Below, piece by piece: positions 10,610-64,000 of a DNA stretch of 64,000 nucleotides (positions are counted from its first letter, which is position 1; every line of letters begins with the position of its first letter). The translations under genes and the position numbers were made by a program. The notes under the pieces are model-generated. The model was not told where the DNA came from and did no database searches. It saw only the letters and a program-made list of their open reading frames with translations. Where the stretch lies: the NCBI GenBank assembly GCA_051876105.1, contig JBJEHN010000072.1, forward strand, positions 6,282 through 70,281, read 5' to 3'. Origin of the DNA: Coriobacteriales bacterium (lineage in GTDB: Bacteria > Actinomycetota > Coriobacteriia > Coriobacteriales > QAMH01).

Positions 10610-11836
10610 CTAGTACTTGTAGGGGTCGCTGATGTCCTCGCCCGCGCTGATGAGGGCGACGTCGCGCGCGATCTCCGCCTCTTCGTCGGTGGGGATGACG
10701 AGCACCTTCACGGCGCTGTCGTCCGTGGAGATGATGCGGTCCTCGCTGCCGGTGACCATGTTGCGCTCCTGGTCGATGCAGATGCCGAAGGGCTCCAGAC
10801 CACGGAAGATGAGGCGGCGCGCGTAGGGGTCGTTCTCGCCCACGCCGGCGGTGCAGACGATGCAGTCGACGCCGGCCAGCTCGAAGAGGTAGGCGCCGAT
10901 CTGGCGGCGGATCGAGGTGAGGAAGATGTCGTAGGCCAGCTCCGAGCGCTCCGCGTCCTCGCTGCCGGCGGCGATGACCTCCTTGAGCTTACGCAGGTCG
11001 CCCGTCACGCCGGAGACGCCCAGCAGGCCGCTCTCGCGGTTGAGGATGGCGTCCATCTCCACGGCGGAGAGACCCTCGCGCTCCATGATGGCGGTGATGA
11101 TGGCGGGGTCGACGCTGCCAGAGCGCGTGCCCATCATGACGCCGTCGAGGGGGGTGTAGCCCATGGTCGTGTCCATCGAAATGCCGTGGTCGATGGCGGC
11201 CAGGCTGGCGCCGCTGCCCAGGTGACAGGTGAGCATCTTGAGGTCGTGTGGGTTGCGTCCCAGGAACTGCGCGGCGCGGCGGCTCACGTACTTGTGGCTC
11301 ATGCCGTGGAACCCAAAGCGGCGGATGCCGTACTCCTCGTAGTAGCGGTACGGGATGGGGTAGATGTAGTTGCGCGCGGGCATGGTCTGGTGGAAGGCCG
11401 TGTCGAAGGCGGCAACCTGGAGGGCGCCGGGCAGCAGCTCGCGGCAGCGGGCCACCACCTCGAGCGCGCTGGGGTTGTGCAGCGGGGCCAGGTGGTTGAA
11501 GCGGCGGATCTGGGCCACGACCTCGTCGGTGATGACGGTGCTGCAACCGAAGGCGTCGCCGCCGTGGGCAACGCGGTGACCCAGGGCGTCGACCTCGTCG
11601 AGGCTCGCCAGCGGCTTGCCGGGGCCTGCGAGCTCGCCAAGCACCAGGGGCAGGGCGTCGCGGCAGCTCGAGGCTGCGGCAGGAACAGCTTGGCCGTCGT
11701 GCTTGAGGCGGCAGTGGTCCGTGCCGATGGCATCGACCATGCCGCTGGCCAGAACCTGCATGCGCTCGGCATCGGTGGCCTCGAAGAGCTTGTACTTGAG
11801 CGAGCTCGAGCCCGCGTTGAACACCAGGATCTTCAC
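10610..11836 (-). CDS. Acetate/propionate kinase family protein (paralog 1)
   Basis: (GTG)KILVFNAGSSSLKY...HRVAHGG...LAPLHNP...FDTAFHQTMP...FGFHGMSH...GTRSGSVDP. The GTG start overlaps the TAG stop of the upstream receiver gene (TAGTG). Confidence 0.8.
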   Translation of the reverse strand: MKILVFNAGSSSLKYKLFEATDAERMQVLASGMVDAIGTDHCRLKHDGQAVPAAASSCRDALPLVLGELAGPGKPLASLDEVDALGHRVAHGGDAFGCSTVITDEVVAQIRRFNHLAPLHNPSALEVVARCRELLPGALQVAAFDTAFHQTMPARNYIYPIPYRYYEEYGIRRFGFHGMSHKYVSRRAAQFLGRNPHDLKMLTCHLGSGASLAAIDHGISMDTTMGYTPLDGVMMGTRSGSVDPAIITAIMEREGLSAVEMDAILNRESGLLGVSGVTGDLRKLKEVIAAGSEDAERSELAYDIFLTSIRRQIGAYLFELAGVDCIVCTAGVGENDPYARRLIFRGLEPFGICIDQERNMVTGSEDRIISTDDSAVKVLVIPTDEEAEIARDVALISAGEDISDPYKY

Positions 11837-12225
11837 TAGTAGTCCACCTCCACCTTGCGCGCGTAGACGCGGTCGAGCAGCGCGATGACGGCGTCGAGTT
11901 TCTTGCTGTCCACGGGCTTGGTGAGGTAGGCCATGGGCTTGATGCCGAAGGGCTCGTCCATGACGTCGGTGTAGGCGGTCATGTAGATGAGGGCCGGCGT
12001 GTAGTCCATCGCGCGCAGGGCCTCAGGCAGCAGCTGGGTGCCGGCACCGGCGATGTTGTGGTCGATGAAGGCCACATCGATGCGCTTGGACTGCATCTTG
12101 GCGATGCCCTCCTGCAGGCAGACGGCCTCGTCCACCACGGTCACGCGGCCGGTGCGGGCCAGCTGGTTGATGAGCTCGACGCGGGCGGGAGCCTCGTCGT
12201 CAACGATGATCGCCTCGAAGATCAT
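11836..12225 (-). CDS. Stand-alone response-regulator receiver domain (LytTR-type receiver without output domain)
   Basis: MIFEAIIVDDE...VAFIDHNI...MTAY...YLTKP carries all canonical receiver residues (DD, D, T, K). It is 129 aa with no DNA-binding domain. Start ATG 12225 follows AAAGGA. Confidence 0.8.
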   Translation of the reverse strand: MIFEAIIVDDEAPARVELINQLARTGRVTVVDEAVCLQEGIAKMQSKRIDVAFIDHNIAGAGTQLLPEALRAMDYTPALIYMTAYTDVMDEPFGIKPMAYLTKPVDSKKLDAVIALLDRVYARKVEVDY

Positions 12226-46415: not shown

Positions 46416-47045
46416 CTAGCGGCTCTCCTTCTCGGCGCGGCGGTCCTCGCGCCAGCGCAGTATGCCGAACACCAACAAGAGCATGAAGGCCACAGCGCAC
46501 AGCTGCAGGCCCGTCGTAATGTCCTGGTCGTCCGCGTAGTGGGTGATGGCGCCGCCGGGGTCGAGCACGCGGATGGTGAGGGCGTGCACGTCGAGCTCGC
46601 CTTGGTGGTCTTCGCAGTCGAGCGAGTAGATGCCGCGCACCTGGATGGTGGTGCCCGCCGTGGAGTAGCTGCCCACGTTGGAGATGCGCGCGGCCATGTC
46701 GTCGTCGACCCACACGCCGATGCAGCTGCCGTCCGCGCCGAGCACGTTGAGCCACTTGTGGCCGCTGCCGCCCCTCATGATGTCTCCCACGACCTCGCCC
46801 GTGAAGCTCACCGTGGCCTCGTTGAGCGCGCGGTTAGCCGCGGTGAGGACGCCCACGCGAGTGGGGACCACCACGTTGTCGGTGTCGTCGACCTCGGGCT
46901 CGCCCTCCTCGAGCGCCTCGTAGCGGTTTGAGAGCGTGCCGATGTCGAGCAGCGGCTCGTCGGCCAGCGCGGCCGCAGGCACCAGCGCGGCAACGGCGAG
47001 CAGCGCGGCGGCGGCGTAGCGCAGCATGCGGGCAGGCAGCCTCAT
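46416..47045 (-). CDS. Hypothetical bitopic protein: signal/anchor helix, beta-rich (OB-fold-like?) domain, C-terminal TM; paralogous to the C-terminal module of the second TrkH protein
   Basis: MRLPARMLRYAAAALLAVAALVPAAALA... ...GEVVGDIMRGGSGHKWLNVLGADGSCIGVWV...HQGELDVHALTIRVLD... ...LQLCAVAFMLLLVFGIL. ATG 47045 overlaps the trkH stop (ATGA). The track ORF 46416..48584 is an artefactual extension. Confidence 0.55.
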   Translation of the reverse strand: MRLPARMLRYAAAALLAVAALVPAAALADEPLLDIGTLSNRYEALEEGEPEVDDTDNVVVPTRVGVLTAANRALNEATVSFTGEVVGDIMRGGSGHKWLNVLGADGSCIGVWVDDDMAARISNVGSYSTAGTTIQVRGIYSLDCEDHQGELDVHALTIRVLDPGGAITHYADDQDITTGLQLCAVAFMLLLVFGILRWREDRRAEKESR

Positions 47046-48577
47046 CGGCGCTCCCTCCCCCACCTGAAGCCGTCCTTGGGCGCCAGGCTCAGCGCGATCT
47101 GCAGCACCATGGCGAACACCGCCACGAACTCTAGGCGGCCCAGCAGCATCTCGACGATGTACACGAACTCCAAAAACGGCGGCATGCCCGGCGCCACGAT
47201 GCCGGCGGAAAGCCCGCCGTTCGACGCGGCAGAGATCGACTCGAAGATCGCCGGCAGGGCGTCGTAGCCGCAGATGATCCCCGCGATCGCCCCCAGGGCG
47301 AAGGTGAGCACGTACATCAGGAAGATGGTCATGGCGTTGGAGGCGAGGTCGGCCGTGAGCAGCTTGCGGCCCAGGTGGTAGTAGAAGGTGCGCGGCATGA
47401 CGCGGTCTGGCACCAGCGCCTCGCGCAGGGTCTGCACCACCGTCGTGGCGCAGATGCCGATGCGGAAGGCCTTGATGCCGCCCGTGGTCGAAGACGACGA
47501 GCCGCCGATGATCATCCCGACGCCGATCATGAACAGCGCGCCGGAGCCCATGGCGTAGATGAGCTGCCCCGAGTACACCGTGGAGAAGCCCACGTTCGTG
47601 GCAGCCGAGATGACAAGAAAGACCACGCGGCGCAGCAGCGCAGTGAAGCTGTTGAAATAGTCGCCGGACATCACCACGATGGTCAAGATCAGCACCAGGC
47701 CGAAGATCCAGATGGCCATGGTGTGGACCTCGATGTCCTTCAGGAGGTTCTTGATGCGGCCCTTCCAGATGTCGCCGTAGAGCGTGAAGTTGATGATCCC
47801 GAAGAACATCAGGCACACGGCGATGATCTCCAGCGGCCAGGAATGGTAGGCCATGATGCCCATGGACTGCCCCGTCATGCCGCCGGTGGCGAAGGCGGAG
47901 ATGGTGATCCACAGCGAACTGAAGGCAGCGCGCAGCGGCGCCTGGCCGCCCAGCAGCAGCGGGATGGCGCAGACCGCCGTGCCCACCACGATGATGATGG
48001 CCGTGACCTTGAAGATGAAGCGCGCCATCTGGCGGATCTCCGGCATGACGCGGCCCTCGCGGGCCTCGGCGTTGTAGATGGAGGCTGCGCCCGAGCCCGT
48101 GCCGAAGATGCCCAGCGCCAGGGCGATGACCAGGACGCCCACACCGCCCATCAGGTGCAGGATGAAGCGCCAGGTGATCATGGAGAGCGCCATGTGGTCG
48201 AGGTCGATGGCGATGGAGAGGCCGGTTGCCGTGATGCCGGAGACGCCCTCGAGCAGGGCGTCTTGGAAAGTAGCGTAGTGCCCGGAGAACCACAGCGGCA
48301 GCGAGCCGAAGAACGCCAGCACGCCCCACGAGAGCGCCGTGACCACCAGCGCCTGGTGGCGCAGCATGGTGCCGCGCTTGACCTGGGCCAGCGTGAGCAG
48401 CGCGCCCACGATGCCGGTGAGGCCTATGCACTTGAGGAAGATGGCGGCCTGGTCGAGCTCGTCGAGCGCCAGGGCCAGGGCGAAGGGCACGCACATGACG
48501 GCGGCCATCAGGAGGATGAGCGCCCCCAGGTAGTGGCAGATGATCCGCCAGTCCTCCAGATGCAGCCGGGTGACCAA
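47042..48577 (-). CDS. trkH: TrkH/KtrB-family cation (K+) transporter, paralog 1
   Basis: Four pore-loop glycine motifs (SGITATGLS, SAFATGGM, SAATNVGFS, AASNGGLSAG) and an SSSTTGGIKAFR gating-loop motif. TTG start 48577. Confidence 0.85.
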   Translation of the reverse strand: MVTRLHLEDWRIICHYLGALILLMAAVMCVPFALALALDELDQAAIFLKCIGLTGIVGALLTLAQVKRGTMLRHQALVVTALSWGVLAFFGSLPLWFSGHYATFQDALLEGVSGITATGLSIAIDLDHMALSMITWRFILHLMGGVGVLVIALALGIFGTGSGAASIYNAEAREGRVMPEIRQMARFIFKVTAIIIVVGTAVCAIPLLLGGQAPLRAAFSSLWITISAFATGGMTGQSMGIMAYHSWPLEIIAVCLMFFGIINFTLYGDIWKGRIKNLLKDIEVHTMAIWIFGLVLILTIVVMSGDYFNSFTALLRRVVFLVISAATNVGFSTVYSGQLIYAMGSGALFMIGVGMIIGGSSSSTTGGIKAFRIGICATTVVQTLREALVPDRVMPRTFYYHLGRKLLTADLASNAMTIFLMYVLTFALGAIAGIICGYDALPAIFESISAASNGGLSAGIVAPGMPPFLEFVYIVEMLLGRLEFVAVFAMVLQIALSLAPKDGFRWGRERR

Positions 48578-48799: not shown

Positions 48800-50995
48800 C
48801 TAGAGCCTCAAGCCCAGGAAGCGGATGCGCGACCTGCCCCGCAGGAGGCGCTCGACCACCAGGACGGCCGCAGCCAGCCCCAGCAGGCACACGCCGGCGA
48901 TGCCGAGGCCGGTGTTGGCCTCGTGGGCCACAGGGTAGCCCGCCACCCTCACGGCAAGCGTGACGGCGTGGACCTCGAGCTCGCCAGAATGCATGGAGCA
49001 GGCCTGGTGGTAGGTGCCCTCCACCACGACCTTGTCGCCCTGCACGCCGTACTTGCCGAAGGTGCCCACGCGCTCGGCCAGGCTGTTGCGCACGTAGACG
49101 GAGATGACCTTGCCCTCCTGGTCCTGGATGTTGAGCCAGCTGTGGCCTGTGCCGGCCTTGACGGCGTAGCCCACCACCTCGCCTGAGATGCGCACCTTGT
49201 CGCCGTCCATGCGGCTGCTGGCGCCGAGCAGCTCCGAGATGCTCGAGCTGCGGTAGCTCTGTGTGAACGCGAGCTCCATGCTGGGCTCTTCTGCCACAGC
49301 CGCGCGCGGGGCGCTGGCGGCCAGCAGCCCACCGGCCAGGGCGAGGCTCAGCAGCAAGGGCAGCAGGGCCTTGGGGCTGTTGCCCTCCAGGAAGAGCACC
49401 CTGCGCAGGCGGCGCAGGCGGGCGCGGCGGTTGTCGCGGCGCTGAGACTTGCGGCTGCTGCTCACGCCCTCGGGGATGACGTTGCGGTGGGGGCGCAGGC
49501 TGGCAACCAGGCTGGCGAAGGCGGCGATGAGCGCCACAAACTCCAAGCGGCCGGCCCACATCATGAGCATGGCCATGAGCAGCAGGCTCGACGGCATGGT
49601 GGAAGCGGCCTGCCCCACGCAGATGCCGGTGTTGGTGACATAGGAGATGCTCTCGCAGATGGCGTCGACGGCGCCGTAGCCGTGCGCGATGAACACCGCC
49701 GCGCCGATGGCCGCGGCCATGATGAAGAGCGTGGTGACGACCATGGCCAGCTGGGCGCCCTCGGAGCTCGCGCGCCGCGGCCCGAAGTGCTCGTACGTGG
49801 CGGTAACGCGCACGCTGTCTGGGAAGAGGCTGCGCTTCACGCTGATGCCGAACCATCGCAGCACCTGCAGCCCGCGGAAGACCTTGAGGCCGCCAGCCGT
49901 AGAGCACGAGCAACCGCCCATGAACATGGCCGCCATGATGAGCATCAGCGCCCCGTCTGGGAAGCTCGCGCCCATCTGCCCGGGGTAGACGGTCTGCATG
50001 CCGGAGGTCGTAGCAGCGCTCACCACCATGAAGGTGCTGTGGTTGAACAGGCCGGTGAGGCTCGTGAAGATGCCCTCGCGGCAGAGTATGATGCTCACGA
50101 TCACCACCAGCAGGAACAGCCACACCGCGTAGGCGCGCAGCTCGGAGTTGCGCAGGATGGTCTGGCGGGCGTCGTCGCTGGCGCTGCGGCTGATGGAGAG
50201 CGCGAAGATCGCGAAGTTGAGCGAGCCCAGGATCATCAGCACCGCCACGAAGCCGTTGAGCACGGTGGAGTGGTAGAAGATCAGGCTCGAGTTGTGCGGG
50301 ACGAAGCTGCCCGTGCTGAAGGCGTTGCCGCTGAGCCACAGCCCGTTCATGAGCGCGTCTGGCAGGGACATGCCGCCCAAGGCCAGCACCACGGCGAGCG
50401 CTGCCATACCCAAGACCACCATGCCGGCCATGACGGTCCAGATGAGCTGGCCGGTGCTGCGCAGCGCTGCGGTGAGGGCATCGCGGCGGCTGCGGGCGCT
50501 GTCGCGCGCGGAGTAGCCCCCATCGCCAAAGAAGCCCAGGTACAGGGCAGAGACGATGATGGCCTGTCCGCCCGCCAGCGAAAGCAGCGTGCGCCAGGTG
50601 GACTGCGCGTAGGAGAGGTGCTCCACATCCTCCAGGCAGGTGACGCCGGTGGAGGTGAGGGCGGAGACGCTGTCGAAGAACGCTCCCAGGAAGCCGTCGA
50701 AGCAGCCCGAGAGGTACAGGGGGATGGCGGCGAAGAAGCCCACCAGCACCCAGCCGAAGCCGCACAGCAGCAGCGAGCGGCGACGGTCCAGGCGCCCGGC
50801 CTTGAGCAGCGACAGCAGCGCGCCCGCAAAAGCGGTGAAGCCCGAGGAGAACACGTAGACCATGCCCTCCGAGGTCTCGCCAAAGCACGCGGCGATGGCA
50901 GCCGGCATCAGCATCAGGGCGCCGCTGATAACCAGGATGACCCCCAGGTAGTGGCCTACCGTGCAGACGTCCTTGAGATGGAAGCGCAACAACAT
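48800..50995 (-). CDS. trkH: TrkH/KtrB-family transporter, paralog 2, fused in-frame to a C-terminal anchor/beta-rich/TM module
   Basis: MLLRFHLKDVCTVGHYLGVILV... parallels the paralog-1 N-terminus. Pore motifs and CSCSTAGGLKVFR are present. A basic linker is followed by ...GEVVGYAVKAGTGHSWLNIQDQEGKVISVYV...HSGELEVHAVTLAVRV... and a TM. Start set to ATG 50995. Confidence 0.8.
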   Translation of the reverse strand: MLLRFHLKDVCTVGHYLGVILVISGALMLMPAAIAACFGETSEGMVYVFSSGFTAFAGALLSLLKAGRLDRRRSLLLCGFGWVLVGFFAAIPLYLSGCFDGFLGAFFDSVSALTSTGVTCLEDVEHLSYAQSTWRTLLSLAGGQAIIVSALYLGFFGDGGYSARDSARSRRDALTAALRSTGQLIWTVMAGMVVLGMAALAVVLALGGMSLPDALMNGLWLSGNAFSTGSFVPHNSSLIFYHSTVLNGFVAVLMILGSLNFAIFALSISRSASDDARQTILRNSELRAYAVWLFLLVVIVSIILCREGIFTSLTGLFNHSTFMVVSAATTSGMQTVYPGQMGASFPDGALMLIMAAMFMGGCSCSTAGGLKVFRGLQVLRWFGISVKRSLFPDSVRVTATYEHFGPRRASSEGAQLAMVVTTLFIMAAAIGAAVFIAHGYGAVDAICESISYVTNTGICVGQAASTMPSSLLLMAMLMMWAGRLEFVALIAAFASLVASLRPHRNVIPEGVSSSRKSQRRDNRRARLRRLRRVLFLEGNSPKALLPLLLSLALAGGLLAASAPRAAVAEEPSMELAFTQSYRSSSISELLGASSRMDGDKVRISGEVVGYAVKAGTGHSWLNIQDQEGKVISVYVRNSLAERVGTFGKYGVQGDKVVVEGTYHQACSMHSGELEVHAVTLAVRVAGYPVAHEANTGLGIAGVCLLGLAAAVLVVERLLRGRSRIRFLGLRL

Positions 50996-51004
50996 AATGC
51001 GGGG

Positions 51005-51010
51005 ATTATA
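51005..51010 (-). promoter_or_regulatory. TATAAT -10 box 9 nt upstream of the trkH-2 ATG (possible leaderless transcript)
   Basis: Minus strand reads GCGCTATAATCCCCGCATTATG. There is no SD-like sequence before the ATG, and the -35 match is poor. Confidence 0.35.
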
Positions 51011-51029
51011 GCGCGCAGCCGCAGAGGGC

Positions 51030-51069
51030 AAAAATGGGACAGTGGGCTACGTCCCCACTGTCCCATTTT
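51030..51069. terminator. Conserved palindromic terminator, copy d
   Basis: AAAAATGGGACAGTGGG-CTACGT-CCCCACTGTCCCATTTT, 14 nt after the argG stop (51083). Confidence 0.75.
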
Positions 51070-51082
51070 CGCGTGCAGGTGC

Positions 51083-52318
<1,236 letters not shown>

Positions 52319-52421: not shown

Positions 52422-52847
52422 CTAGAGCAGCTGCTCGACGCGGTCTTGGAAGCGCTCCCCCGCGCCGTCGTCGCTCGTGATCACCAAGATGGTGTCGTCG
52501 CCGGCGATGGTACCCAGCACGCCCTCCGGCATGGCGGCGTCGATCGCGGCGGCCACGCCCTGGGCCGCCCCCGGCCTGCACAGCACGATGACCTGGTTGC
52601 CGGCGCGGCGCGTCTCCCTCACCTGGGCCTTGAGCACCGTACGCAAGTGCAGCAGCTCGGGGAGCACGTAGATGCCGCTGGCGTCCTTCTCGAGGCCCAG
52701 ATCGGCCATGTCGCGGCTCACGGTGGCCTGGGTCACCTCGAAGCCCTCCCCCGCGAGCAGGTCCATCAGCTCGCGCTGGGTGCGGACTTCGTTCCCTTGT
52801 ATCAGGGCCGTGATGACGGCCTTGCGGTCTTGGCGCACAGCGGACAT
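52422..52847 (-). CDS. argR: Arginine repressor
   Basis: ...TQRELMDLLAGEGFEVTQATVSRDMADLGL... (winged-helix) plus C-terminal ...GTIAGDDTILVI... The start abuts the upstream stop (TAGATG). Confidence 0.9.
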   Translation of the reverse strand: MSAVRQDRKAVITALIQGNEVRTQRELMDLLAGEGFEVTQATVSRDMADLGLEKDASGIYVLPELLHLRTVLKAQVRETRRAGNQVIVLCRPGAAQGVAAAIDAAMPEGVLGTIAGDDTILVITSDDGAGERFQDRVEQLL

Positions 52848-53807
52848 CTAGGCACCTCCCATCAGCAGGCTCAAAACAGCGGTTTGGATGTGGAGCAGGT
52901 TCTCCACCTGCTCGGCTGCGGTGCAGCAGGGGTCCTGGGCGAGCTCGGCGTCGACCTCGGTGCCGCGCGCCGCCGGGTGCGACCACAGCAGCAGGGCGCC
53001 GGGGGCCGCCTGGCCCATGAGCGCGGCGTCGACGAGCGGCGCGCCCGGGCCGACCGTCACAGCTGCAGCTCCCTGCAGGGCCTCTGCCACGCTGGCCGCC
53101 ATGCGGATGGCACCGCCGGTGCGCTGGGCCGTCTGACGGCACTCGTCAAGCAGCTCCTGCTCGGGCTGGCCGCCCTGCGGGTCCCACACGGCAAGCTCCG
53201 CACCCGCGAGCGCCGCCATGGCCAGGTAGCTCGCCGCCAGAGGGCCCTGCGCGCTGCCCAGGTAGGCGATGGGCGCACCCTCCAAGCCGCCCAGGTTCTC
53301 CGCCAGGGTCATGGCGTCTGCCAGGGCCTGCAGGGGCTGGGCGTCCGGGCCGCCGGCGTTGACCACGGGGGCCTGCGCCCACTCCGCCAGCTCCTCGAGC
53401 AGCGCGCCCGGCGCCCCGTCGGCCACGATGCACGAGCAGCAGAGGTCGAGCAGCAGCGCCGCGTCTTGCGGCGCGTCCTCGCCCTGGAGCACATCCGCGC
53501 CCTCCGGCACGGCCAGGCAGCTGCCGCCCAAGCGCGCCACAGAGGCCTCCATCGCCGTGCGGCGCGGCCACGCGGGCGCGGCCATGAGCAGGGCGGCGGT
53601 GCTGCCCTCCATCACCAGGTCCGGGGCCACCACGCCCTGCTCCTCCTTGAGCACAGCGGCAGTGTTGAGCACGAGGTCGAACTCGTCAGGCGTGAGCTCG
53701 GCCAGGCGCAGCAGGTCACGCCCCGCGAGCTTGGGGCCGCCGTGGCAGGCGCTGCGCATGGCCTCCTCGATGGCGCTCAGGTCGATGTCGAAGTCGAAGT
53801 CGGGCAC
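52848..53807 (-). CDS. Ornithine carbamoyltransferase-like protein at the argF position, with non-canonical catalytic motifs
   Basis: It aligns along its length with the OTCase fold (RDLLRLAELTPDEF..., ...APVVNAGG..QPLQALAD..TL..., ...AEQVENLLHIQTAVL...). However STRTR, HPxQ, SMG and HCLP are replaced. Start is GTG 53807 (after GAGAGGAG) or ATG 53759. Confidence 0.6.
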   Translation of the reverse strand: MPDFDFDIDLSAIEEAMRSACHGGPKLAGRDLLRLAELTPDEFDLVLNTAAVLKEEQGVVAPDLVMEGSTAALLMAAPAWPRRTAMEASVARLGGSCLAVPEGADVLQGEDAPQDAALLLDLCCSCIVADGAPGALLEELAEWAQAPVVNAGGPDAQPLQALADAMTLAENLGGLEGAPIAYLGSAQGPLAASYLAMAALAGAELAVWDPQGGQPEQELLDECRQTAQRTGGAIRMAASVAEALQGAAAVTVGPGAPLVDAALMGQAAPGALLLWSHPAARGTEVDAELAQDPCCTAAEQVENLLHIQTAVLSLLMGGA

Positions 53808-53824: not shown

Positions 53825-55045
53825 CTAGGCCAGGGCCTCTTCGTAGCACGCGGGCAGCTTGGCCACCAGCACGTCCACGTCTTCCTTGGTGCAGACCAGC
53901 GGCGGCAAGAAGCGCATGATGTCTGCGGCGGGGTTGTTGAGCACCAGGCCGTGCCCCTGGCCGGCGAGCACCACCTTGCCGGCCACCGGCTGCTCCAGGC
54001 TGATGCCGCACATCAGGCCCTTGCCGCGCACCTGCGTGACGAAGGGCAGCTCGCCCAGCTTCTCGCGCAGGTAGGCACCCGTCTCGTTGACGTTTTCCGC
54101 AAAGCCGGGGGCGGACATGAGCGCGGTGACGGCCTCGCTCGCGGCGCAGGCCAGGGGGCTGCCGCCGAAGGTGGTCCCGTGCATGCCGGGCCTCATCACC
54201 TGGGCCACGCCCTCGCGCGCGGCAAAGGCGCCCATGGGAACGCCGCCGGCGATGCCCTTTGCCATGCTCACGATGTCCGGCTGCACCCCGTAGGTCTGGA
54301 AGGCGAAGGGTGCCCCGCAGCGGAAGAAGCCCGTCTGGACCTCGTCGAAGATGAGCAGCATGTTGTGCTCGTCGCAGATGCGGCGCGCTGCCTCCAGGTA
54401 CTCCTGGGTGCAGGGCCACACGCCGCTCTCGCCCTGGACGGGCTCGAGCATCACGGCAACGGGCATGGTGCCGTCGACGGGCGTGACCGCGGCGGCCTCC
54501 AGGGCGGCGACGTCGTTGAGGGGCACGTGCGCAAAGCCCTGCGGCAGCGGCGCGAAGGGGTCTTGCTTGGCGTCCTGCGCGGTGGCGGCCAGGGTGGCGT
54601 AGGTGCGCCCGTGGAACGACTTGTTCGCCGTGATGATGCCGTAGTTGCCGCCGGCGTTCTCCTTGCCCCAGCGGCGCGCCGTCTTGATGGCGCCCTCGTT
54701 GGCCTCGGCGCCGCTGTTGGCGAAGAACACGCGCCAGGGCTCGGCGCTGCCCCCCTGCAGCCAGGAGGTGATGCGCTCGGCCACGGTGCCGCGGTGCTCC
54801 ACGTAGTAGTAGTTGCTCACGTGCAGCAGCTTGGCGGCCTGCTCCTGGATGGCGGCCACCAGGCTGGGCTCGCTGTGCCCCACGCTCACCACGCCGATGC
54901 CGCTGAGGAAGTCCAGGTACTCGCGGCCCTCGTCGTCGTAGAGGTGCATGCCCTCGCCGCGGACGAACTCCACCGGCTTGCGGGCGAAGGTCTGCATCAC
55001 GTGGAGCTCGTCGAGCTCCCTCTCCTTCTCGAACTGAATGCCCAT
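53825..55045 (-). CDS. argD: Acetylornithine aminotransferase
   Basis: Class-III PLP aminotransferase: ...FANSGAEANEGAIK...DEVQTGF-R-G...SMAKGIAGG...TFGGSPLA. Confidence 0.9.
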   Translation of the reverse strand: MGIQFEKERELDELHVMQTFARKPVEFVRGEGMHLYDDEGREYLDFLSGIGVVSVGHSEPSLVAAIQEQAAKLLHVSNYYYVEHRGTVAERITSWLQGGSAEPWRVFFANSGAEANEGAIKTARRWGKENAGGNYGIITANKSFHGRTYATLAATAQDAKQDPFAPLPQGFAHVPLNDVAALEAAAVTPVDGTMPVAVMLEPVQGESGVWPCTQEYLEAARRICDEHNMLLIFDEVQTGFFRCGAPFAFQTYGVQPDIVSMAKGIAGGVPMGAFAAREGVAQVMRPGMHGTTFGGSPLACAASEAVTALMSAPGFAENVNETGAYLREKLGELPFVTQVRGKGLMCGISLEQPVAGKVVLAGQGHGLVLNNPAADIMRFLPPLVCTKEDVDVLVAKLPACYEEALA

Positions 55046-55084
55046 CGGGGCCTCCTTCTCTCTTCTCGTGCGCGCCGGCAGCCG

Positions 55085-56086
55085 CTAGAGGACGGCGCTG
55101 CCGCAGGGGGTCTGGACGCTGCTCTCGAGCTTGGCGGCGAAGTTGCTCACCGGCGCCTCGACGAAGGTCGGGTCCATGCGGTCGTCCAATGAGCGGACGA
55201 TGAGAGTGCCCACGCCGTCGTCGGTGAAGATCTCGAGCACCAGGGAGTGCAGGATGGTGCCGTTGATGATGTGCGCCTTCTGCACGCCGGCGGAAAGCGC
55301 GGTGACGCAGGCGTTGATCTTGGGGATCATCCCCTTGGAAAGCGTCCCGCTCTCTGCCAGCTCCACCGCCTCCTGCAGCGCCATGCGCAGCACCAGGGTC
55401 GACTTGTCGCTGAAGTCCGTGTAGAGGCCGTCGACGTCTGTCATGAAGACGATCTTCTGCGCGCCCAGGGCCGCGGCGATCTCTCCGGCGGCGGTGTCAG
55501 CGTTGATGTTGAAGTCGCCGTCCTTGCCGTAGCCCACGGTGGCGATGACGGGGATGTAGTCGGCGCTGATGAGGTCCTCGATGAGGCGGGTGTCGACGGT
55601 GTCGACCTTGCCCACGCGCCCCAGCTCCGGGCTGAGCTGGGAGGCCTGGATGATCTTGGCGTCCGCGCCGTTGAGACCCACGGCGATGGCGCCGTGGGAG
55701 TTGATGGAGCGCACCAGCTCCTGGTTGACCTTGCCCACCAGCGTCATCTTGGCCACCTCCATGGTGGCCTCGTCTGTCACGCGCTGGCCGTTGCTCCAGT
55801 GCACGGGGATGTCCATGCGGCCCATCATCTCGGTGATGGCCGGGCCGCCGCCGTGCACGATCACGGGGTTGGCGCCCATGAGCTTGAGCATGATGAGGTC
55901 GTTGACCACGGCTTCGCGCAGGTCCTCCTGGACCATGGCCGCGCCGCCGTACTTGATGACGACTGTCTTGCCGGTGATGTCCTCGATCCAGGGCATCATC
56001 TCCATCAGGGCCTGGGCGCGCGCCGCGTGGGGCAGCTCGCCCAGCTCCTTGATGCTCACTTCCTGGTACTGCTTGCGATAAATCAT
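55085..56086 (-). CDS. argB: Acetylglutamate kinase
   Basis: ...GKTVVIKYGGAAM...PVIVHGGGP...GQRVTD...NINADTAAG... Confidence 0.93.
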   Translation of the reverse strand: MIYRKQYQEVSIKELGELPHAARAQALMEMMPWIEDITGKTVVIKYGGAAMVQEDLREAVVNDLIMLKLMGANPVIVHGGGPAITEMMGRMDIPVHWSNGQRVTDEATMEVAKMTLVGKVNQELVRSINSHGAIAVGLNGADAKIIQASQLSPELGRVGKVDTVDTRLIEDLISADYIPVIATVGYGKDGDFNINADTAAGEIAAALGAQKIVFMTDVDGLYTDFSDKSTLVLRMALQEAVELAESGTLSKGMIPKINACVTALSAGVQKAHIINGTILHSLVLEIFTDDGVGTLIVRSLDDRMDPTFVEAPVSNFAAKLESSVQTPCGSAVL

Positions 56087-56137
56087 GGCTTCCTTCTCGT
56101 CCTCGGGTCCCTCCGCTTGCCGGCTGCCGCGCGGCGC

Positions 56138-57367
56138 CTAGGTGCGGTAGTCCCCGTTGATGGTGATGTAGTCGTGCGTGAAGTCGCAGGTCCACATGCG
56201 GGTGGAGTGCTCGCCTGCGCCCATCCTCACGTCGATGGTGATCTCCGGTTGCTCGAAGCGACGCAGGGCCTCGTCCTCGTCGAAGCCGCAGGGCAGGCCG
56301 GCGCGCATCACGGGCATGCCCATGATGTCGATGTCCACGTCCTCCTGCCTGAAGGCGGCTCCGCTGCGGCCCAGGGCGGCAGCGATGCGGCCCCAGTTGC
56401 AGTCGTGGCCGGCGATGGCGGTCTTCACTAGCGGCGAGTTGGCGATGGTGCGCGCCGCCTTGTCCGCGTCCTGCTCGCTGGCCGCCCCGCTCACGGTGAC
56501 GGTCACGAGCTTCGAGGCGCCCTCTCCGTCTGCAGCCATCTTGCGCGCGAGGCTCTCGCACAGGGCGCCCAGCGCCTGGCAGAAGGCCTCGTAGCCCTCG
56601 GTGCCCGGCTGCAGCAGCGGGCCGCCTGCAGCGCCGTTTGCCAGGCAGAAGCAGGAGTCGTTGGTGGAGGTGTCGCTGTCTACGGTGACCTTGTTGAACG
56701 AGCGGTCCACCGCTGCCTTGAGCGCCTGGCGCAGCGCAGCGGGCTCGAGCGCGGCATCCGTGGTGATGACGGCGAGCATGGTGGCCATGTTGGGCATGAT
56801 CATGCCGGAACCCTTTGCCATGCCGCCTATCCTGTAGCGCACGCCTTGCGCCTCGAAGGCCACGGCGCACTCCTTGGCAACCGTGTCCGTGGTCATGATG
56901 GCCTGGGCGGCTGCGGCTGCGGCCTGCGGGGTGCTGCCCAGCTCGGCCACCAGCAGGGGCAGGCCGCTGCGGTAGGGCTCGAGCGGCAGCTGCACGCCGA
57001 TAACGCCGGTGGAGGCCACGAAGACCTCGCCCTGGGGCACGCCGAGCGCCTCGGCCGCAAGGCGCTGGGACTCGAGCGCCACCTCGTCGCCGGGCTTGCC
57101 GGTTGCCGCGTTGGCGTTGCCGGAGTTGAGGATGACGGCGCGTGCGCGCCCGCCCTGGGCAACCGCGCGCGAGAGCTTGACCGGCGCCGCGCAGAACACG
57201 TTGCAGGTGAAGGTGCCGGCAGCCGCCGTGCCCTCCACTTCGGAATAGACCAAGGCGGCGTCCCTGCGCTGCGGGTTGGCCCTGAAGCCCGCGTGCACGC
57301 CCGCGGCCTTGAAGCCCGCCGGCGCAGTCACCCCGCCCTCTGTGAACTCGAACTCAATGGCGCTCAT
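56138..57367 (-). CDS. argJ: Bifunctional glutamate N-acetyltransferase/amino-acid acetyltransferase
   Basis: ...GVTAPAGFKAAG...LNSGNANA-TG...GMAKGSGMIMPNMATML (autoprocessing ATML site)...TNDS... Start ATG 57367. Confidence 0.93.
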   Translation of the reverse strand: MSAIEFEFTEGGVTAPAGFKAAGVHAGFRANPQRRDAALVYSEVEGTAAAGTFTCNVFCAAPVKLSRAVAQGGRARAVILNSGNANAATGKPGDEVALESQRLAAEALGVPQGEVFVASTGVIGVQLPLEPYRSGLPLLVAELGSTPQAAAAAAQAIMTTDTVAKECAVAFEAQGVRYRIGGMAKGSGMIMPNMATMLAVITTDAALEPAALRQALKAAVDRSFNKVTVDSDTSTNDSCFCLANGAAGGPLLQPGTEGYEAFCQALGALCESLARKMAADGEGASKLVTVTVSGAASEQDADKAARTIANSPLVKTAIAGHDCNWGRIAAALGRSGAAFRQEDVDIDIMGMPVMRAGLPCGFDEDEALRRFEQPEITIDVRMGAGEHSTRMWTCDFTHDYITINGDYRT

Positions 57368-57419
57368 CTCGCGCCCCCCTCTCTCAAAGCGCCTGCCGCG
57401 CGGCAGGCGGTGCTCTCTC

Positions 57420-58469
57420 TTACACAACCGGGCAGCTGCCGTCGAGGCCGGCTGCCTCTGCAAAGCCGAAGGCGATGTTAGCCGCCTGGACCGCCTGGCC
57501 GGCGGCGCCCTTCACCAGGTTGTCGATGGCGCAGCTGGCGATGAGCATGTCCCCCTGGGGGCTCACCTTGACGCCCACCTGGGCCCTGTTGCTGCCCTCG
57601 ACCCAAGCCGTCTGGGGCATCATGCCCTGCGGCAGCGCGGTGACGAAGGGCTCGCCCTCGTAGCGCGCGGCGTAGAGCGCGTGCGCCTGCTCGTCGGTGA
57701 GGGGCTGGGCCAACGGCAGGTAGGCGGTGGCCAGCAGGCCGCGCACCATGGGCACCAGGTGCGGGGTGAAGAGCACCTCGACGCTGCGGCCAGCGCCGCG
57801 GCTCAGGGTCTGGGCGATCTCCGGCGTGTGGCGGTGCGGCAGGCCGTAGAGGCCCACGGACTCGTCCGCGTTGCAGAAGTGCGTCTTGGCGCTGGCCTTG
57901 CGCCCGGCCCCGCTCACGCCGGAAAGCGCGGCGATGACCACGGGGCCCTGCCCCAGCAGGCCGGCCTCTGCCAGCGGCAGGCAGGCGAGCGCGGAGGCTG
58001 TGGGGTAGCAGCCCGGGCAGGAGAGCACGGGCGGCTTGGCGGCGATCTGCGCGCGGGCCGCCTCCGGCAGGGCATAGACCGCCTGGGCCAGCAGCTCGGT
58101 GCTGGTGTGCGGGGCGCCGTACCAGGCCTCGTAGACGGCCGGGTCTGCGATGCGGTAGTCAGCGGAGAGGTCCACCACCTGCACGCCGGCCGCCACCAGC
58201 TGGGGCGTCATGGCCAGCGAGGCGGTGTGCGGCACCGCCAGGAAGGCGACGTCTGCCTGGGCGGCCACGGCCGCGGCGTCATGCGGCTGGAACTCCAGGT
58301 CGCAGATGCCCAGCAGCGCGGGGTAGAGCTCGCTCATGCGCTTGCCGGCGTCTCCGGTCGAGGTGATGCAGGTGAGCTCGAAGCCCGGGTGCCCGCACAG
58401 GATGCGGACGGCCTCCGCCCCTGCGTAGCCCGCTGCCCCGACAACCGCTGCCCTCACCATCTCGACCAT
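57420..58469 (-). CDS. argC: N-acetyl-gamma-glutamyl-phosphate reductase
   Basis: ...VRAAVVGAAGYAGAE..., active-site region SCPGCYPTA. Start is ambiguous among ATGs at 58460, 58469 and 58484. Confidence 0.9.
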   Translation of the reverse strand: MVEMVRAAVVGAAGYAGAEAVRILCGHPGFELTCITSTGDAGKRMSELYPALLGICDLEFQPHDAAAVAAQADVAFLAVPHTASLAMTPQLVAAGVQVVDLSADYRIADPAVYEAWYGAPHTSTELLAQAVYALPEAARAQIAAKPPVLSCPGCYPTASALACLPLAEAGLLGQGPVVIAALSGVSGAGRKASAKTHFCNADESVGLYGLPHRHTPEIAQTLSRGAGRSVEVLFTPHLVPMVRGLLATAYLPLAQPLTDEQAHALYAARYEGEPFVTALPQGMMPQTAWVEGSNRAQVGVKVSPQGDMLIASCAIDNLVKGAAGQAVQAANIAFGFAEAAGLDGSCPVV

Positions 58470-58547
58470 CGTCCTCTCATTCATCGCACGGGCCCTCGCC
58501 CGATTTCTCACAACGTAAAGGACCCGCGGTAACGGGTCCGGTTGGTC

Positions 58548-58632
58548 ATTATGTACTTGTTTGGCACGTTCTGCAATTATTCAGCGGAAATATGCAGAAA
58601 ATTTGCAATATGGCTGCAAAAAATGCAGTTCA
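58548..58632 (-). promoter_or_regulatory. arg operon promoter (TTGCAG-17-CATAAT) overlapped by A/T-rich TGCA-N-TGCA ARG-box-like repeats
   Basis: -10 at 58548-58553 and -35 at 58571-58576 (minus strand). ARG-box-like sites are CTGCAATTATTCAG (58571-84), TATGCAGAAAATTTGCAA (58591-608) and CTGCAAAAAATGCAG (58614-28). An argR gene lies in the same operon. Confidence 0.55.
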
Positions 58633-58636
58633 GAGC

Positions 58637-59830
58637 TTAATCGAGCTCCTCACCATCCACCAGCTTGCGGGTGTCGCGCGCAATCATGAGCTCCTCGTTG
58701 GTGGGCACGATGAGCACTTTCACCTTGGAGCGCGGGTCGCTGATGACGCTCTCGACGCTCTCTGCGCGGTTGGCCTTGTGGTCGAGGATGATGCCCAGCG
58801 GCTCCAAGCCGGAGAGGATCATGCGGCGCATGCGCTCGCAGTGCTCGCCCACTCCGCCGGCAAACGAGATGGCGTCCACGCCGCCCATGACGGCGATGTA
58901 GGAGCCGATCATCTTCTTCACGCTGTTGGAGTACATGTCGTAGGCCAGGGTGGCGCGCTTGTGGCCGGCCAGGGTGGCTGCCTTGACCACGCGCAGGTCG
59001 TTGGAGAGGCCGGAGATGCCCGCCAGGCCCGACTCGCGGTTCATCAGGTTGTTGACCTCGCTGGGGGTGTAGCCCTCCTGCTCCATGAGGAAGGTGACGA
59101 TGGCGGGGTCGATGTCTCCGCAGCGGGTGCCCATCATGACGCCGCCCAGGGGCGTGAAGCCCATGGAGGTGTCTGCAGAGCGGCCATGGTCGACCGCGGT
59201 GAGCGAGCAGCCGTTGCCCAGGTGGCAGGTGATGATCTTGAGGTCCTGCAGGGGGCGCTCGAGCAGCTCGGCCGTGCGGGCCGCGATGTAGCGGTGGCTG
59301 GTGCCGTGGGCGCCGTACTTGCGGATGCCGTAGCGCTCGTAGAACTCGTAGGGCAGGGCGTACATGTAGTTGCGCGGGGCCAGGGTCTGGTGGAACGCGG
59401 TGTCGAAGACGACGGCGTTGGGCACGCCGGGCATGAGCTCCTGGCAGGCGTTGATGCACTTGAGAGCGGGAGGGTTGTGCAGCGGGGCGAGCTCCGAGAG
59501 AGCCTCGATGTCTGCCAGGACCTGCTCGTCGACGAGCACGCTCTTGTCGAACTTCTCGCCGCCGTGGACGACGCGGTGGCCGATGGCGTCGATCATGTCC
59601 AGGCTGCCGAGGTCGTTGACGAGGGTGTCGATGACGACCTCCATGGCCTCGAGGTGGTTCTTCATGGGCTTGGTGATGACCTTGTTGTCATCGCTGTACC
59701 ACTGCTTGCAGAAGGCGTCGTCGCAGCCGACCTTCTCGCAAAGGCCCTTGGCAATGACGCTCTCGTCGTCCATGTTGATGACCTGGTACTTCAGGGAAGA
59801 GCTGCCTGCGTTGATTACGAGTACGTTCAT
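58637..59830 (-). CDS. ackA: Acetate kinase (paralog 2)
   Basis: MNVLVINAGSSSLKYQV...HRVVHGGEKF...LAPLHNP...FDTAFHQTL...YGAHGTSH...GTRCGDIDP. Start ATG 59830; the track extension is spurious. Confidence 0.9.
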   Translation of the reverse strand: MNVLVINAGSSSLKYQVINMDDESVIAKGLCEKVGCDDAFCKQWYSDDNKVITKPMKNHLEAMEVVIDTLVNDLGSLDMIDAIGHRVVHGGEKFDKSVLVDEQVLADIEALSELAPLHNPPALKCINACQELMPGVPNAVVFDTAFHQTLAPRNYMYALPYEFYERYGIRKYGAHGTSHRYIAARTAELLERPLQDLKIITCHLGNGCSLTAVDHGRSADTSMGFTPLGGVMMGTRCGDIDPAIVTFLMEQEGYTPSEVNNLMNRESGLAGISGLSNDLRVVKAATLAGHKRATLAYDMYSNSVKKMIGSYIAVMGGVDAISFAGGVGEHCERMRRMILSGLEPLGIILDHKANRAESVESVISDPRSKVKVLIVPTNEELMIARDTRKLVDGEELD

Positions 59831-59962
59831 GCTCTCTCTTTCGGAGTAATGGCGCCGTGCCGGCATGTGATTATCTGCGGACTCCGGCCATTCTCTCACA
59901 CGGGCCCCGCGCTTCACACTCCCTTGCCTGCCAGTGGCTTGCACCCGCTGCCCAGGAGGCGC

Positions 59963-63546: not shown

Positions 63547-64000
63547 CTAGGCGGCAGCGCTCCTCGCCCCCTCCCTGCTCTTCTTGGCCTTCTTCTTCAC
63601 CTTCGCCGGGCGGCCCGGGAGCTGGGGCTGGCAGTCGCCGCACCTGAGCATGAGCAGCGCCACGAGGTTGTCGGTGTTGCGGAAGCCGTAGCCCATCCTC
63701 ACCGTCACCTTGATCTTGTTGTTGATGGCCTCGACCCTCCCGTTGCTGATGCCGAGCTCGACTGCGGCGACGATGTCGTCGCGGCGGCGGCGCACCTTCT
63801 TCTCCACGGCCACGACCTTGGCGATCTTGCAGTAGGCGGCCCTGTGCATCCAGTCGTCGAGCAGCTCGGCGGCCTCCGCGGCGTCTGCGGCCTGGAAGAC
63901 GGCGCGCAGGTCCTCCTTGAGCTCCCATGCCCTGATCAGCCTCGAGCCGGCCCTCTTCTTGAGCGCCTCGAGCCTGGCCCTCTGGTTGTCGGTGAGGTCC
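63547..64000 (-). mobile_element. ISL3-family transposase gene, C-terminal part only (5' part beyond window end)
   Basis: Own translation: ...DLTDNQRARLEALKKR...WELKEDLRAVFQA...LLDDWMHRAAYCKIAKV...ISNGRVEAINNKIKVTVRMGYGFRNTDNLVALLMLRCG. This shows the characteristic SNG-VEG/AiNNKIK...YGFRN block of ISL3 transposases. IS ends not determined. Confidence 0.8.

Follow-up and report, generated by a model that had tools for sequence, protein, structure and literature searches.

A probable pseudoenzyme occupies the argF slot of a Coriobacteriales arginine operon

The DNA analyzed here, a 64,000-nucleotide stretch from a Coriobacteriales bacterium (contig JBJEHN010000072.1 of assembly GCA_051876105.1, positions 6,282 to 70,281; hereafter the window), carries an arginine biosynthesis cluster in which the slot of argF, the gene for ornithine carbamoyltransferase (OTCase), holds a strongly altered homolog. 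The Pfam families of the called genes give the order argC-argJ-argB-argD-X-argR-argG, where X (52848..53807) encodes a 319-residue protein with the OTCase fold and without its catalytic motifs (a putative pseudo-ArgF), as judged from the open reading frame, Pfam, structure prediction and the ratio of nonsynonymous to synonymous substitution rates (dN/dS). All of these genes, and all features of X given below, lie on the minus strand. Upstream of X, Pfam places argC-argJ-argB-argD at 53825..58484, with argC at 57420-58484 and argD at 53825-55045. X begins with a GTG codon at 53807, 17 nucleotides past the argD stop and preceded by the ribosome-binding site AGAGAGGAG, and ends with TAG at 52848-52850. 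This stop is followed directly and in the same frame by the ATG of argR (junction TAGATG, 52845..52850), an abutment that is also present in orthologous loci. The argR gene (52422..52847) encodes 141 amino acids with both ArgR domains (PF01316, PF02863) and the arginine-site motif GTIAGDDT. Downstream of it lies argG (51083..52318), followed by two trkH genes, rsgA and nrdD. The GC content at third codon positions of X is 0.92, similar to its neighbors, while its overall GC content is 0.74 versus 0.66-0.73 in the neighbors; alanine makes up 21% of the protein and lysine only two residues (0.6%). An earlier reading of this DNA from its letters alone (the sequence-only reading) had proposed the gene placement, the order of the arg cluster, the intact frame with its third-position GC bias and the abutment to argR, all of which the open reading frame calls, Pfam families and base composition bear out.

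Active-site residues were mapped by HMMER alignment to the Pyrococcus furiosus OTCase (1pvv/1a1s) and by a MAFFT alignment of 88 sequences, in which column counts compare 82 other OTCases with the X family (X and its orthologs, six sequences with invariance scored). The phosphate-binding motif S-T-R-T-R, whose columns most commonly hold S (71 of 82), T (41, with L in 27), R (69), T (68) and R (71), reads A79-W80-P81-R82-R83 in X (53559..53573), and W80, P81 and R83 are invariant in the six orthologs. At H-P-x-Q, X has Q157-P-L-Q160 (53328..53339), where Q157 is invariant in the X family and histidine is present in 69/82 of the others. The cis Leu-Pro motif HxLP, H-C-L-P in the textbook enzyme, is replaced by W275-S-H-P278 (52974..52985) and reads W275-S-H/Y-P across the family, with W275 and S276 invariant at a site that begins with histidine in 79/82 other OTCases. 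The ornithine-binding 240s loop, with its D-x-x-x-S-M-G motif, has undergone a 17-residue deletion that leaves the remnant V-G-P-G-A-P-L (residues 252-258, 53034..53054); the deletion and the GPGAP sequence are both invariant across the X family. The hand mapping in the sequence-only reading, which had reported A-W-P-R-R, Q-P-L-Q, W-S-H-P and an unrecognizable SMG loop, is therefore unshifted, as the HMMER and MAFFT alignments give the same residues. Three further losses had not been noticed before. The equivalent of the carbamoyl-phosphate ligand Arg106, an arginine in 73/82 other OTCases, is D130 (53418..53420; glycine in orthologs); the equivalent of Arg319 in the ENRxH motif (ENRLH) is L304 (52896..52898), a leucine that is invariant in the X family where 67/82 others have arginine; and the ornithine-site asparagines of GDGNN are lost from a segment that reads SAQGPL. 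An alignment artefact was rejected as the source of these losses, three independent alignments being in agreement. Seven cysteines, either specific to X or located in the N-terminal extension described below, are also invariant (C21, C97, C123-x-x-C126, C223 and the vicinal C294-C295), and canonical OTCases have no cysteine at the columns of C123-x-x-C126 and C294-C295. A metal site built from the seven was considered and set aside, as their invariance is not significant at 76% overall identity (~0.15 by chance) and their secondary-structure positions suggest that not all of them lie at one site.

Despite these losses, X is predicted to fold as an OTCase. Both domains are recognized by Pfam, PF02729 (OTCace_N) with 72 bits against a gathering threshold of 29.9 (7e-20) and PF00185 (OTCace) with 66.6 bits against 29.4 (3e-18). 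The AlphaFold2 model has a mean predicted local distance difference test score (pLDDT) of 93 and a predicted template modeling score of 0.89. A Foldseek search with this model finds the P. furiosus OTCase (1a1s) as the best structural match, with a template modeling score (TM) of 0.87 and a root mean square deviation of 2.0 A, and matches Mycobacterium tuberculosis ArgF with TM 0.82-0.84, so that the model supports an intact fold. Models of function give a different result. With the OTCase equivalog TIGR00658 (cutoff 280.85), X reaches 133 bits, less than half of the required score, and its ortholog P0005 128 bits; X also scores 145 against a cutoff of 306 on NF001986, whereas the canonical Coriobacteriales controls P0190 and P0213 pass both models (388/408 and 384/417, respectively). 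Models of other transcarbamylases do not claim the protein either: X scores 70 on the AOTCase model NF003384 (cutoff 288), 68 on the PTCase model (cutoff 500) and 18-19 on the YgeW models (cutoffs 453-500). Inspection of the X alignments reveals only the deletion, with no insertions of the proline-rich-loop or extended-120s-loop kind. The motifs SxRT, HPxQ and HxLP characterize all known transcarbamylases (PMC4581275), and X has none of the three. That is to say, X has the fold and the argD-argR slot of an OTCase, and lacks both the TIGR00658/NF001986 scores and the DxxxSMG and GDGNN motifs of one.

The family to which X belongs is narrowly distributed. A search of 5.8 billion proteins returned seven ortholog clusters at 90% identity, 76-98% identical to X, of which five are full-length and intact and two (P0006, P0007) are shorter and come from short contigs. 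An exhaustive HMMER search of 1.84 billion representatives places X in a single cluster at 50% identity, with the next match at 35% identity. The gene is present in independent assemblies (NCBI, ENA and Logan), and one ortholog cluster holds 110 members. The two GTDB species representatives with X are both metagenome-assembled genomes (MAGs) of uncultured Coriobacteriales/Coriobacteriaceae, and one clade comes from Ugandan cattle gut metagenomes. All full-length orthologs retain the frame, the deletion, the replacement residues and the operon order; none has a frameshift or stop, and W80, P81, R83, Q157, W275, S276 and L304 are invariant replacements throughout the family.

Substitution patterns indicate that this conservation is maintained by selection. 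By the Nei-Gojobori method, dN/dS of X is 0.155, 0.27 and 0.25 for the window against the related loci L004, L009 and L013, respectively. The same genome pairs give 0.16-0.19 for argD, 0.12-0.22 for argR, 0.12-0.16 for argB and 0.05 for argG (0.044-0.048), the range over argC-argJ-argB-argD is 0.08-0.20, and canonical ArgF gives 0.18 between two other Coriobacteriales (L019 versus L021). Judged by these comparisons, X is under purifying selection and is not a decaying pseudogene, which agrees with the view of the sequence-only reading that decay was unlikely; the three values of 0.16-0.27 and the replacement residues fixed in six orthologs both speak for it. Neither frameshifts or stops nor a dN/dS near 1, the marks of a pseudogene, are found. 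We use pseudoenzyme for an enzyme homolog that has lost its catalytic residues and is kept by selection, and X exhibits both the residue loss and the selection on an intact frame.

Comparison with related contigs indicates where X came from. The contig L024 shares about 20 kb of synteny with the window, comprising an RNase D-like gene, xseAB, ackA, argCJBD, the argF slot, argR, argG, trkH, trkH, a gene for 210 amino acids, rsgA and nrdD, and its argF slot holds the canonical 335-residue ArgF P0190. A canonical argF also lies between argD and argR in the more distant L019, L021, L026 and L027. Proteins on either side of the slot have 64-93% identity between the window and L024 (argD 80, argB 80, argG 84, argR 75), compared with 40% for X and P0190. 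X matches Coriobacteriales ArgFs with 118-234 bits (median 151), and the best OTCases outside these and the X family reach at most 123 bits in the library of 1.84 billion protein representatives. Taken together, the sequence comparisons identify X as an in-place descendant of the lineage's own argF, a descent that the sequence-only reading had not foreseen. In three-taxon estimates, the branch of X is 4.5x as long as the median of its neighbors on the stem and 2.7x within the clade, which implies that X changed rapidly at first and then came under constraint again, although somewhat less tightly. A neighbor-joining tree instead joins X to other degenerate high-GC OTCase-like proteins in 84/100 bootstrap replicates and to Coriobacteriales ArgF in 1/100. 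We reject this placement as long-branch and compositional attraction, because bit scores, the common N-terminal extension and synteny all indicate the local argF. As a separate observation on the operon, L021 (335-2949; GCA_051876145.1, JBJEHP010000199.1) has ackA followed directly by argJ, with no argC at its usual place and a canonical argF present.

The strongest resemblance between X and its catalytic relatives lies at the N terminus. Residues 7-56 (53640..53789), which comprise an N-terminal extension (IDLSAIEEAMRSACHGGP, predicted helix at residues 10-21 with pLDDT 70-77 in the AlphaFold2 model) and helix H1, are the best-conserved part of X relative to P0190, with 39/50 identical residues (78%) versus ~33% elsewhere. 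Resolved by segment, identity is 87% in the extension (residues 7-29), 70% in helix H1 (30-56), 60% in the C-terminal helix, 49% in the H4-H5 segment and 15-44% in the remaining segments. The sequence-only reading had X aligning along its length with OTCases. The first 29 residues, however, cannot be aligned to textbook OTCases, and the sharing of the extension with catalytic relatives was likewise unexpected. The extension motif IDLSAIEEAMRxACHGGP occurs in 8/138 sampled Coriobacteriales ArgFs (P0190, P0181, P0182, P0185, P0186, P0187, P0206 and P0233), all with intact catalytic motifs, and these are exactly the eight best matches of X. A looser pattern of 20-30 residues, [ILV]D[LV]S[AP][IV]xEA[ML]...C[HG] (window 53721-53789), lies outside the Pfam and NCBIfam OTCase models. 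The outer side of the carbamoyl-phosphate domain of an OTCase is where H1 packs against the C-terminal helix, and in the dodecameric OTCases of P. furiosus and P. aeruginosa the trimers contact one another through H1. These dodecamers are active enzymes, and their H1 contact region corresponds to the region that X preserves. The presence of the extension in catalytic relatives suggests a retained interaction surface. We infer from this conservation pattern that the face of H1 and the C-terminal helix already served a function independent of catalysis in the ancestral ArgF, either assembly or partner binding, and that this function is still selected in X.

The remainder of the pathway appears to be in use. 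Within the clade that carries X, dN/dS is 0.044 for argG, 0.145 for argB, 0.198 for argD and 0.185 for argJ, none above the values in the clade with canonical argF, so that constraint on argC, argJ, argB, argD and, above all, argG is no weaker than in that clade. This strong constraint on argCJBD and argG implies that ornithine synthesis and citrulline use continue. On present sequence evidence, the intervening ornithine-to-citrulline step must be supplied by an OTCase encoded elsewhere, by citrulline import or, with low probability, by X itself. One possible source is a catabolic ArcB, by analogy with Staphylococcus aureus, where a catabolic OTCase can reportedly serve arginine synthesis (PMC9239276). 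Pfam annotation of the remainder of the window finds no other arg genes, no arc or car genes and no argH. The sequence-only reading had remarked that argH is missing after argG, and trkH genes do stand there instead. Sister lineages with a normal argF likewise lack argH after argG, and its loss is for that reason unrelated to X; the absence is ancestral to the group. P0206 and P0191, which are 80-81% identical to P0190, were considered as second OTCase copies and rejected, since both are argF genes flanked by argD/argR homologs and come from other lineages and samples. The one canonical ArgF that a comparison of accession numbers brought up (MGN0059958.1) belongs to another MAG of the same study. 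Upstream of argC, an AT-rich stretch (window 58570-58640, minus) in this 67% GC genome contains the TGCA-based palindromes CTGCATTTTTTGCAG, TTGCAAATTTTCTGCAT and TGAATAATTGCAG, which are plausibly ArgR operators; the E. coli-type ARG-box pattern has no match in the window.

Comparison with characterized systems helps to place X. Its closest counterparts, the Coriobacteriales ArgFs such as P0190 and P0213 (TIGR00658/NF001986), share its two-domain fold, its argD-argR slot and about 20 kb of flanking genes, and the subgroup of P0190 also shares the extension and helix H1. They differ from X in retaining SxRT, HPxQ, HxLP, Arg106, Arg319, the GDGNN asparagines and the full SMG loop. AOTCase, SOTCase, PTCase, YgeW and UGTCase are, like X, divergent OTCase/ATCase homologs that were first mis-annotated and lack DxxxSMG. 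The three carbamoyl-phosphate motifs, absent from X, are retained in every one of them (PMC4581275). The knotted transcarbamylases among such enzymes have an extended 120s loop or a proline-rich loop, in contrast to the shortened 240s loop of X, and by its sequence X differs in kind from AOTCase, SOTCase, PTCase and YgeW. A model for how X might work is PyrC', an inactive dihydroorotase-like subunit of Pseudomonas ATCase that is needed for assembly of the transcarbamylase complex (cited in PMC4581275). Here too, a dead homolog of a pathway enzyme is retained for assembly. PyrC' has an amidohydrolase fold, however, and its structural role is demonstrated, whereas that of X is proposed by analogy. 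Four proteins of high-GC Actinomycetota (P0012, P0015, P0016 and P0017) are, like X, alanine-rich with partly eroded SxRT, HPxQ or HxLP, and unlike X they keep a full-length 240s loop; the neighbor-joining tree unites them with X solely through the attraction described above. Erosion of motifs in the OTCase fold may thus be recurrent, as far as these sequences indicate. Two of them, P0017 (L017 527-1540) and P0012 (L018 7385-8347), lie outside arg operons, among Usp, Rv2632c-like, Pyridox_ox_2, CBS/BON and GAF sensor-kinase genes, in a neighborhood that looks like a dormancy or stress context by its gene content.

The reading that we favor is that X is an in-place descendant of argF that has probably lost carbamoyltransferase chemistry and is maintained by purifying selection as a folded protein, which would make it a pseudoenzyme. 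The sequence-only reading had offered either a divergent but active transcarbamylase or a non-catalytic pseudoenzyme, and the second option gains at the expense of the first because X lacks every carbamoyl-phosphate ligand as well as the ornithine loop, and its losses are not confined to the acceptor-specificity loops that vary in AOTCase, SOTCase and PTCase. The function kept would be independent of catalysis and would reside on a surface to which the N-terminal extension, H1 and the C-terminal helix contribute, nearly unchanged from catalytic relatives. X would then most plausibly serve as an assembly or regulatory partner, its trimer docking on another protein of arginine metabolism or its regulator, or alternatively as a partner subunit of a real OTCase, with citrulline either taken up or made from ornithine by the product of an OTCase gene beyond the window. 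Literature searches returned no pseudo-OTCase, inactive OTCase paralog or transcarbamylase pseudoenzyme. Several observations weigh on the other side. When six canonical OTCases were compared with all six-frame open reading frames of the window, X was the sole match, so the window holds no second OTCase. The family forms a single cluster at 50% identity with orthologs at least 76% identical, which weakens inference at the level of single sites. Conservation relative to P0190 is poor (24-44%) across residues 77-133, the region of the trimer interface, and the idea of an interaction surface is drawn from the pattern of conservation only. In addition, the X-specific invariants (W80, W275, Q157, S276, R83, R281 and several cysteines) could equally mark a new ligand-binding or catalytic site.

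This last point leads to the alternative that survives best, although we consider it unlikely: that X is an active enzyme with new chemistry, in which a remodeled cleft (W80, R82/R83, Q157, Q160, W275, S276, H/Y277 and R281) accepts another substrate or another carbamoyl or acyl donor, possibly extending to a non-canonical synthesis of citrulline. Replacement residues that are invariant across orthologs within a former active site are what a new functional site would be expected to show, and a dN/dS almost as low as that of real ArgF, the continued need for the step implied by strongly constrained argG and argCJBD, and the lack of another OTCase in the window all fit such an enzyme. Against it, all known transcarbamylases, AOTCase, SOTCase, PTCase, YgeW and UGTCase among them, retain the three motifs of which X has none (PMC4581275). 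Four positive or polar carbamoyl-phosphate ligands have become P, G/D, Q and L, X lacks the mobile 240s loop by which the site is closed, and the strongest conservation of X lies outside the cleft.

A mixed assembly, in which X acts as a regulatory or poison subunit in trimers with a canonical OTCase encoded elsewhere (e.g., a catabolic arcB), appears quite unlikely. E. coli ArgF and ArgI, which form mixed trimers, would be the precedent. OTCase active sites lie at subunit interfaces, such that a dead subunit would alter activity (PMC4581275), the fold of X is intact, and the S. aureus case described above (PMC9239276) indicates that a catabolic OTCase could fill the biosynthetic role. Yet no second OTCase was identified in the window searched, and few parts of X resemble canonical ArgF as little as the region that would form the interface.

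Two further explanations appear improbable. In one, X is a functionless relic whose frame is held open only for translational coupling to argR through TAGATG or as protection against polarity. The stop-start abutment, an evolutionary rate 2.7-fold that of the neighbors and the compositional drift to 74% GC, 21% alanine and 0.6% lysine are all in keeping with a relic. Selection for an open frame alone predicts a dN/dS near 1, however, rather than the 0.16-0.27 observed in three comparisons; the predicted fold is intact with high confidence, and identity to a catalytic relative is 78% over the N-terminal 50 residues versus ~33% over the rest. In the other, equally doubtful, the lineage of X would have no other OTCase at all, and X itself would link argCJBD to argG, either by producing citrulline or an equivalent intermediate at a rebuilt site (Trp80, Trp275, His277, Arg82/83 and Arg281) that dispenses with the canonical carbamoyl-phosphate site, or by regulation of an unprecedented kind that its conserved N-terminal module would exert. 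That X is an ordinary OTCase whose motif loss is an artefact of alignment or assembly, as the name given to two members by the NCBI pipeline could imply, is effectively refuted by the three concurring alignments, the recurrence of the sequence in NCBI, ENA and Logan assemblies, and an equivalog score below half the cutoff that canonical controls pass, the same pipeline naming two other members 'hypothetical protein'.

Should the pseudoenzyme reading hold, X would be the first pseudoenzyme of the textbook transcarbamylase family, and sister lineages that carry the catalytic form in identical synteny would make it an unusually clean case of in-place conversion of an enzyme gene. X also points to the unstudied N-terminal extension of Coriobacteriales ArgF, which apparently has a catalysis-independent function. 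A practical consequence concerns annotation. Public names for the family are inconsistent among the NCBI records compared (MGN0038444.1, MGN0078321.1, MGN0072617.1 and MDD6769009.1), with 'ornithine carbamoyltransferase' in two MAG records and 'hypothetical protein' in two others. Where the former label is applied, metabolic reconstructions of gut bacteria may wrongly score arginine biosynthesis as complete.

Other features of the window merit brief description. In the trkH region (46416-47045, 47042-48577 and 48800-51031, minus), both trkH genes are followed by a homologous module of ~160 amino acids without a Pfam match. One copy is a fusion to the first TrkH, and the other is an overlapping gene of its own behind the second (33% identity, E-value 2e-25). 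The separate copy has a hydrophobic leader ahead of the common region, a hydrophobic tail ends both copies, and the arrangement is conserved in L004, L023 and L024. Two acetate kinase genes, at 10613-12022 and at ~58637-59962 (minus), lie 47 kb apart, the latter directly upstream of the arg operon in conserved synteny. At the edge of the window, just beyond the region of synteny compared with related contigs, is a fragment of an ISL3-family transposase (63547-63999).

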